Origin: Escherichia coli
GTDB taxonomy: Bacteria; Pseudomonadota; Gammaproteobacteria; Enterobacterales; Enterobacteriaceae
Direction: 5' to 3' (one strand)
Assembly: GCF_003334385.1 (NCBI RefSeq)
Contig: NZ_QOWN01000118.1
Length of the DNA stretch: 1,258 nt
In this document: in pieces, positions 40 through 897 of the stretch
How positions within the stretch are numbered: position 1 is the stretch's first letter
Layout: each line of letters starts with the position of its first letter
Translations under genes and position numbers: made by a program
The notes under the pieces: generated by a model
What the model saw: the letters and a program-made list of their open reading frames with translations, nothing else
Databases searched by the model: none
Told to the model about the DNA's origin: nothing

Positions 40-897
40 GTTCTTGTTTTCAAATTGTTCCGGACTGAGGCCGCCACACCAACTGTGCCGCCGCCACCGA
101 TTGTAATCACATTCGATATAATTAAACACCGTTGCCCGCATTATTTCCCGGCTGATAAAGTGTTCTCCATGGATACATTCCACTTTCAGCGAATGAAAGA
201 AGCTTTCCACGCAGGCATTATCGTAGCAGCAACCTTTTGCGCTCATACTTCCACGCAGATTATGCCGCTTCAGTTGCGCCTGATAATCTGCTGAACAGTA
301 CTGGCCTCCACGGTCCGTGTGAACGATAACGTTCCGGGGCCTCTTACGCCGCCACAGCGCCATCTGCAGGGCATCGCAGGCCAGTTGCGCCGTCATGCGT
401 GGCGACATTGACCAGCCAATAACGGCACGTGACCACAGGTCAATGACCACTGCCAGATACAGCCAGCCTTCATCTGTACGTAAGTACGTGATGTCTCCTG
501 CCCACTTCTGGTTCGGGCCACTGGCGTAAAAATCCTGCTCCAACAGATTTTCTGACACAGGCAGGCCGTGTGCGCGGTAGCTGACCGGGCTGAACTTCCG
601 GGAGGCCTTTGCCCTCAGTCCCTGACGGCGCAGGCTTGCCGCCACGGTTTTTACGTTAAAGGGGTAACCCTGAGCACGCAGTTCATCCGTCAGGCGTGGG
701 GCACCGTAACGCTGTTTTGACCGGGTAAAAGCCGCGAGGACAACGCTGTCGCAGTGTTGGCGGAACTGCTGACGCGTGCTTATCCTTGTCCGCCGCTGAC
801 ACCACGTATACCAGCCGCTGCGGGCCACCCGGAGCACGCGGCACATTGCTTTGATGCTGAACTCAGCCTGATGTTTTTCAATAAAGACATACTTCAT
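31..897 (-). CDS. insF: IS3 OrfB (transposase catalytic DDE domain), 288 aa
   Basis: The minus-strand ORF runs from the ATG at 895-897 to the TAG at 31-33, in the -1 frame relative to orfA. Its ATG overlaps the orfA TGA stop as ATGA. The translation contains the catalytic residues D135 (WAGDITY, codon 493-495), D195 (HTDRGGQY, codon 313-315) and E231 (ESFFHSLK, codon 205-207), with a conserved K seven residues after the E. This is the retroviral-integrase-like DD(35)E signature. Confidence 0.93.

Follow-up and report, generated by a model that had tools for sequence, protein, structure and literature searches.

The DDE catalytic triad of a complete IS3 copy in Escherichia coli

The stretch of Escherichia coli DNA analyzed here (the window, 1,258 nucleotides in its full length) is almost certainly one complete copy of the insertion sequence IS3, in which OrfB residues D135, D195 and E231 form the DDE triad of a transposase with an RNase-H fold that belongs to the retroviral-integrase superfamily. 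We found no evidence in the present analysis that contradicts this explanation. IS3 is the founding and type member of the IS3 family, itself among the largest families of insertion sequences, and that its DDE triad is akin to that of retroviral integrases has stood in textbooks since the early 1990s. The triad reported in a first-pass annotation of the window is thus correctly identified but already known, because the element is IS3 itself; its practical value lies in annotating the window as an intact IS3 copy, and it carries little weight as a discovery. We label the window as an intact, probably mobile IS3 with insE, insF and an OrfAB frameshift fusion, rather than as a pseudogene.

Identity and architecture of the element

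The window aligns with positions 1–1258 of the F plasmid (NC_002483.1) at 100% identity over 1258 bp. A Megablast search of 5,426 complete E. coli genomes gave matches in 4,686, many of them at 100% over all 1258 bases, and the matching E. coli copies all bear the annotation 'IS3-like element IS3 family transposase', together with a programmed frameshift. Moreover, the OrfA and OrfB translations of the window are identical to InsE1 and InsF1 of K-12 MG1655 (b0298/b0299). It follows from the full-length identity to the IS3 of the F plasmid and of E. coli, together with the InsE1/InsF1 identity, that the window is, with very little doubt, exactly one complete IS3 element. Its main features are as follows.

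1–39: IRR, the orfB-distal terminal inverted repeat, found by inverted-repeat search; begins 5'-TG, with GATC at 2–5
1220–1258: IRL, the terminal inverted repeat upstream of orfA; ends CA-3' on the plus strand, with GATC at 1254–1257
894–1193, minus strand: orfA (insE), 99 aa, the DNA-binding N-terminal part; ATG at 1193–1191, stop at 896–894; identical to MG1655 InsE1
31–897, minus strand: orfB (insF), encoding 288 aa followed by a stop codon, shifted by -1 with respect to the orfA frame; identical to MG1655 InsF1
927–930, minus strand: A_AAG slippery tetramer, the predicted site of the programmed -1 ribosomal frameshift between orfA and orfB; its AAG is a codon of the orfA frame, and RefSeq annotates a 'programmed frameshift'
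886–921, minus strand: stem-loop, the 5' part of the published IS3 pseudoknot, in which GACAUACUUC (921–912) pairs with GAAGUAUGUC (895–886) in the MFE fold as well as in the centroid fold
31–1193, minus strand: OrfAB transframe transposase, 387 aa, a constructed fusion corresponding to the 387-aa 'IS3-like element IS3 family transposase' of RefSeq

Most of the properties by which members of the IS3 family are recognized are found in the window. The window's 1258 bp fall within the family's size range of about 1.2–1.55 kb, and its imperfect inverted repeats (arms 1–39 and 1220–1258, 39 nt each and 72% complementary, the window running TGATCC...AGATCA) have the termini 5'-TG...CA-3'. The element has the two-frame layout with a slippery motif, an rve core with DD(35)E-K, and a 3-bp target duplication, against the 3–4 bp expected of the family. 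OrfB alone scores 339.2 bits against NF033516, the NCBIfam profile 'IS3 family transposase' (cut-off 160), while its scores against other NCBIfam families lie below their own cut-offs (90.7 versus 224 for IS481 and 24.6 versus 125 for IS6), and OrfA matches positions 1–87 of the NF033516 profile. A helix-turn-helix in the N-terminal part is supported by the fusion proteins in the database, which carry PF01527 (HTH_Tnp_1).

The MG1655 copy IS3A (NC_000913.3, 315229–316483) is 100% identical to the window over 1255 bp. It is annotated as 1255 bp and is without the three outermost IRL bases (TGA), which correspond to window positions 1256–1258; the IRL end of that copy, without its last three bases, is probably unusable.

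The only two GATC (Dam methylation) sites of the element, at 2–5 and 1254–1257, lie within the terminal repeats and adjoin the cleaved ends. Two antisense ORFs on the plus strand (19–294 and 754–1029, 91 aa each) were considered as genes and rejected, since annotated copies list the transposase only.

Integrity of the copy and signs of recent movement

Activity requires an intact triad, but such a triad is not enough to ensure it. The first-pass annotation had taken the integrity of the triad in the 288-aa OrfB as a sign that the encoded transposase is catalytically active rather than a decayed relic, and this reading is supported, but mainly by the identity of the whole element to other copies, by the identity of its proteins to those of MG1655 and by fresh target duplications, with the caveats that the triad alone does not suffice and that the 288-aa OrfB is not the enzyme. 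Five strains together provide six copies with exactly the sequence of the window, five in chromosomes and one in a plasmid, and no two of the six share a locus. The flanks of these six copies carry perfect 3-bp direct repeats that are all different (GTC, TAC, GTA, GGA, ATT and GAA), and some of the copies interrupt recognizable genes, for example ydfK and wzz(fepE). The intact parts of the window comprise both inverted repeats, orfA, the A_AAG motif, the stem-loop and orfB. The entire element is undamaged, and it bears signs of recent movement.

A triad can be intact in a copy that is dead or permanently silent for a reason that lies elsewhere, in an end, the frameshift signal or the promoter, and its integrity would then be uninformative on activity. 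Beyond the insufficiency of the triad, two observations lean this way. A scan of the window for promoters and terminators did not rise above chance, the consensus promoter search returning two sites versus 0.9 expected, both of them internal, and no convincing sigma-70 site ahead of orfA; and GATC sites are present at both ends. Methylation by Dam reportedly reduces the activity of IS3. We nevertheless consider a silent copy very improbable, given that all 1258 bp are identical to copies at many loci with fresh perfect 3-bp duplications, that none of the parts listed above is damaged, and that the proteins are identical to those of the MG1655 IS3, which are active in experiments: expression of the MG1655 IS3 transposase with its frames fused at the A4G motif led to deletions and rearrangements (PMC8860574). 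Decay, moreover, looks different, as in a relative on a Klebsiella plasmid whose frameshift site is deleted.

That relative (NZ_CP023417.1) is an IS3-like copy with 73% identity, in which the slippery site has been lost (TCCC--AACAGG) in the region of window positions 927–933. No gene is annotated over the copy in the plasmid's table, which is incomplete, and we regard it as an example of a decayed relative.

The frameshift fusion as the transposase

As described for IS3 and its family, the working transposase is the fusion OrfAB made by frameshifting; the 288-aa OrfB supplies the catalytic module and is not itself the transposase. When the -1 slip at A_AAG is constructed, OrfA residues 1–89 are followed by 10 linker residues from the orfB frame and by OrfB residues 1–288, which gives 387 aa, the length of the RefSeq fusion, and places the triad at D234/D294/E330. 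The 10-bp stem begins 5 nt after the slippery site, and its 3' arm holds the orfA UGA and the G of the orfB AUG. The frameshift window published for IS3, CCUCCA-ZZZN-GCCGC followed by a pseudoknot (Sharma et al., PMC4066793), matches the window sequence, so that the element is identical to the insE/insF-bearing IS3 of E. coli K-12 and the F plasmid in this respect as well. A scan of the whole window against Rfam, at E up to 1, gave no match, the frameshift pseudoknot included, and the assignment of the frameshift RNA element therefore rests on the fold and on PMC4066793. The signal differs from that of IS911, which has an A_AAA_AAG heptamer, a stem-loop and an upstream SD-like stimulator, where IS3 has the A_AAG tetramer and a pseudoknot (PMC4066793).

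Annotated fusions can place the change of frame slightly differently. A 387-aa database fusion (P0074) that is one residue off the window's OrfB reads ...AILPKGRD..., with the frame change one codon before the A_AAG slip, and the slip in the window (927–933) gives ...AILQKGRD..., unlike P0074 and annotations of the WP_085947771.1 type. The offset may be an annotation convention, not a biological difference.

Could OrfB alone, translated from its own ATG, be the active transposase? The whole catalytic core is within OrfB, and separate synthesis of the protein is permitted by an overlap of the two frames: the orfA stop and the orfB start share ATGA (894–897), within the 3' arm of the stem downstream of the slippery tetramer, an arrangement that fits OrfB synthesis through translational coupling. 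Separate OrfB synthesis by this route has reportedly been described for IS3. In vitro, purified OrfB of ISSau2, an element of the IS150 group, was about as efficient as OrfAB in cleaving the inverted repeats, yet OrfB lowered ISSau2 transposition in vivo (PMC5771124). OrfB also lacks the N-terminal helix-turn-helix that recognizes the ends, and OrfA and OrfB are reported to be inhibitory to IS3 transposition, PMC5771124 citing Sekine et al. 1997 for inhibition by OrfB together with OrfA. With the OrfAB frameshift product being the transposase in IS3 and its family (PMC5771124; bioRxiv 10.1101/2023.06.07.543989), the fusing of the frames having been required to raise activity (PMC8860574), and the 387-aa fusion being what RefSeq annotates, the probability that OrfB acts alone is close to nil. 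Because the transposase is OrfAB, and the unshifted OrfA and OrfB are inhibitory, we correct the 288-aa OrfB of the first-pass annotation to the catalytic module.

The same mRNA region contains a perfect 13-nt inverted repeat (window 858–870 and 1071–1083) whose arms are separated by 200 nt. In the transcript, nt 111–123 of orfA (1083–1071) are complementary to nt 28–40 of orfB (870–858), and the MFE fold and the centroid fold alike contain the 13-bp pairing (z -3.15). Of 300 dinucleotide shuffles, 2 (under 1%) produced a perfect repeat of 13 nt or longer. In close relatives the 13-bp helix is mostly retained through conservation of the sequence itself, alongside two G-U changes and a single compensatory pair, and no equivalent pairing was found in three relatives at 48–56% OrfB identity. 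We do not claim the helix as a feature, because the close relatives keep the sequence and the distant ones are without an equivalent. The helix would close off the part of the mRNA in which the frameshift site, its pseudoknot and the orfB AUG lie, and there is a small chance that it modulates frameshifting, OrfB initiation or the stability of untranslated mRNA.

The catalytic triad and its relatives

The domains and residues of the catalytic module are located as follows.

592–741, minus strand: HTH_21 (HTH-like) domain, OrfB residues 53–102 (PF13276, E 6.6e-12)
232–522, minus strand: rve integrase core, OrfB residues 126–222 (PF00665, E 1.3e-27, model positions 2–100 of 102); holds the first two catalytic aspartates
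37–207, minus strand: rve_2, the C-terminal part of the catalytic core, OrfB residues 231–287 (PF13333, E 2.2e-20)
493–495, minus strand: D135 codon GAC, the first catalytic aspartate, motif WAGDITYL; beta-strand 1; equivalent to HIV-1 integrase D64
313–315, minus strand: D195 codon GAC, the second catalytic aspartate, motif VHTDRGGQY; end of beta-strand 4; equivalent to HIV-1 integrase D116
205–207, minus strand: E231 codon GAA, the catalytic glutamate; helix 228–242; equivalent to HIV-1 integrase E152
184–186, minus strand: K238 codon AAA, a conserved basic residue 7 after E231; equivalent to HIV-1 integrase K159

The codons and motifs that the first-pass annotation had assigned to D135, D195 and E231 are all exact in the 288-aa minus-strand translation of 31–897, as are the gap of 35 residues it had counted between D195 and E231 and the lysine it had noted 7 residues after the glutamate; between D135 and D195 there are 59 residues. 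Its assignment of the triad to the IS3-family and retroviral-integrase signature is borne out by the rve match, by invariance in 113 homologs and by alignment with HIV-1 integrase. The HMM search against Pfam rve that it had proposed recovered the core with one refinement: the rve match stops at residue 222, and E231 therefore lies outside it, as the first position of the rve_2 match.

The bare D-x35-E spacing is weak evidence, and the context of profile, conservation and integrase alignment is decisive. The pattern occurs three times in OrfB (from D195, D204 and D226), and 35% of 5000 residue shuffles of the protein contain it one or more times. The search for relatives returned 64,153 at E up to 0.001 in 1.84 billion representative proteins. 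In an alignment of 113 full-length relatives (36–57% identity), the only invariant positions are G65, D135, H193, D195 and E231; K238 is conserved at a level of at least 90%, with a lysine in 113 of 119 sequences. Family-wide statements on DD(35)E-K/R made here rest on this alignment together with PMC5771124 and PMC3219604.

Sequence searches of the PDB, with the single sequence and with a profile, reached only deltaretroviral integrases. Both aspartate motifs of OrfB align with those of the STLV-1, HTLV-1 and HTLV-2 integrases, D135 falling on the aspartate of 'WQGDITH' in the STLV/HTLV enzymes, but the alignments end before the glutamate and E231 was not placed. Because these searches could not place E231, we used a profile-profile alignment (hhalign) against the HIV-1 integrase core, whose sequence was verified against the PDB beforehand, and it put D135, D195, E231 and K238 on D64, D116, E152 and K159. 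The first-pass annotation had named misplacement or substitution of the acidic residues as what would refute it, and the result is the opposite, three acids that are invariant in the 113 homologs and aligned to the HIV-1 integrase triad.

An AlphaFold2 model computed on the alignment (mean pLDDT 94.9, pTM 0.85) places D135 on strand 131–141, D195 directly after strand 191–194, and E231 and K238 on helix 228–242. These predicted positions are the secondary-structure elements on which the triad was expected, and the modeled mixed five-stranded sheet, flanking helices and D/D/E placement are those of an RNase-H-like fold. The beta1/beta4/alpha4 placement of the triad that has been described for the superfamily (PMC3219604) is the same as in the OrfB model. 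No experimentally solved IS3-family transposase was among the structures reached in the PDB searches, a gap we note here, and for that reason the predicted active-site geometry in the family still rests on modeling and homology. A fortuitous arrangement of common acidic residues without catalytic meaning, a reading to which the frequency of D-x35-E in OrfB and its shuffles might lend itself, is ruled out by the invariance of the three residues across 113 divergent homologs, by their alignment onto the proven catalytic residues of HIV-1 integrase and by their predicted placement on canonical structural elements.

A literature search found no report of point mutations at the triad residues of IS3 itself. 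Triad mutant evidence is on record for IS911. bioRxiv 10.1101/2023.06.07.543989 provides it for the relatives IS629/IS1203v.

From the literature and established knowledge of the family, we infer how the triad would be put to work. At A_AAG, with the downstream pseudoknot as stimulator, ribosomes translating orfA would slip by -1 and so produce OrfAB, the N-terminal helix-turn-helix of which would bind the inverted repeats. The DDE triad would coordinate two divalent metal ions, which would activate first a water molecule, to cleave the 3' end, and next the 3'-OH, to accomplish strand transfer. One cleaved 3' end would be transferred to the other end of the same element, giving a figure-of-eight and then an IS circle with abutted ends, a pathway described for the IS3 family in PMC3219604 and in PMC5771124, the latter citing Sekine et al. 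1999. The circle would be inserted into its target with a 3-bp duplication (copy-out/paste-in), and the OrfA and OrfB made without frameshifting would damp the reaction.

Among members of the IS3 family, the transposition mechanisms of IS911 and IS2 are the best studied. Both are different elements, of different subgroups and with different inverted repeats from those of IS3. According to PMC3219604, PMC2909936 and PMC3299598, they likewise have an orfA/orfB -1 frameshift and an OrfAB transposase whose HTH is N-terminal and whose DDE core is C-terminal, and they share the figure-of-eight and circle intermediates with IS3.

Retroviral integrases (HIV-1, RSV, HTLV/STLV) are more distant, with only about 15–20% sequence identity to OrfB. 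Their N-terminal domain is of the HHCC zinc type and their C-terminal one is SH3-like, where IS3 has the OrfA HTH and a putative leucine-zipper multimerization motif instead, and they act on linear viral DNA ends whereas IS3 makes an IS circle. The spacing between the two aspartates also differs, at 59 residues in the IS3 OrfB versus 51 in HIV-1 integrase. TnsB of Tn7/CAST and IstA of IS21 belong to different families and are 12–15% identical to OrfB; unlike IS3, they need helper ATPases (TnsC and IstB, respectively) and are not made as frameshift fusions, and their end architecture and duplication lengths differ from those of IS3.
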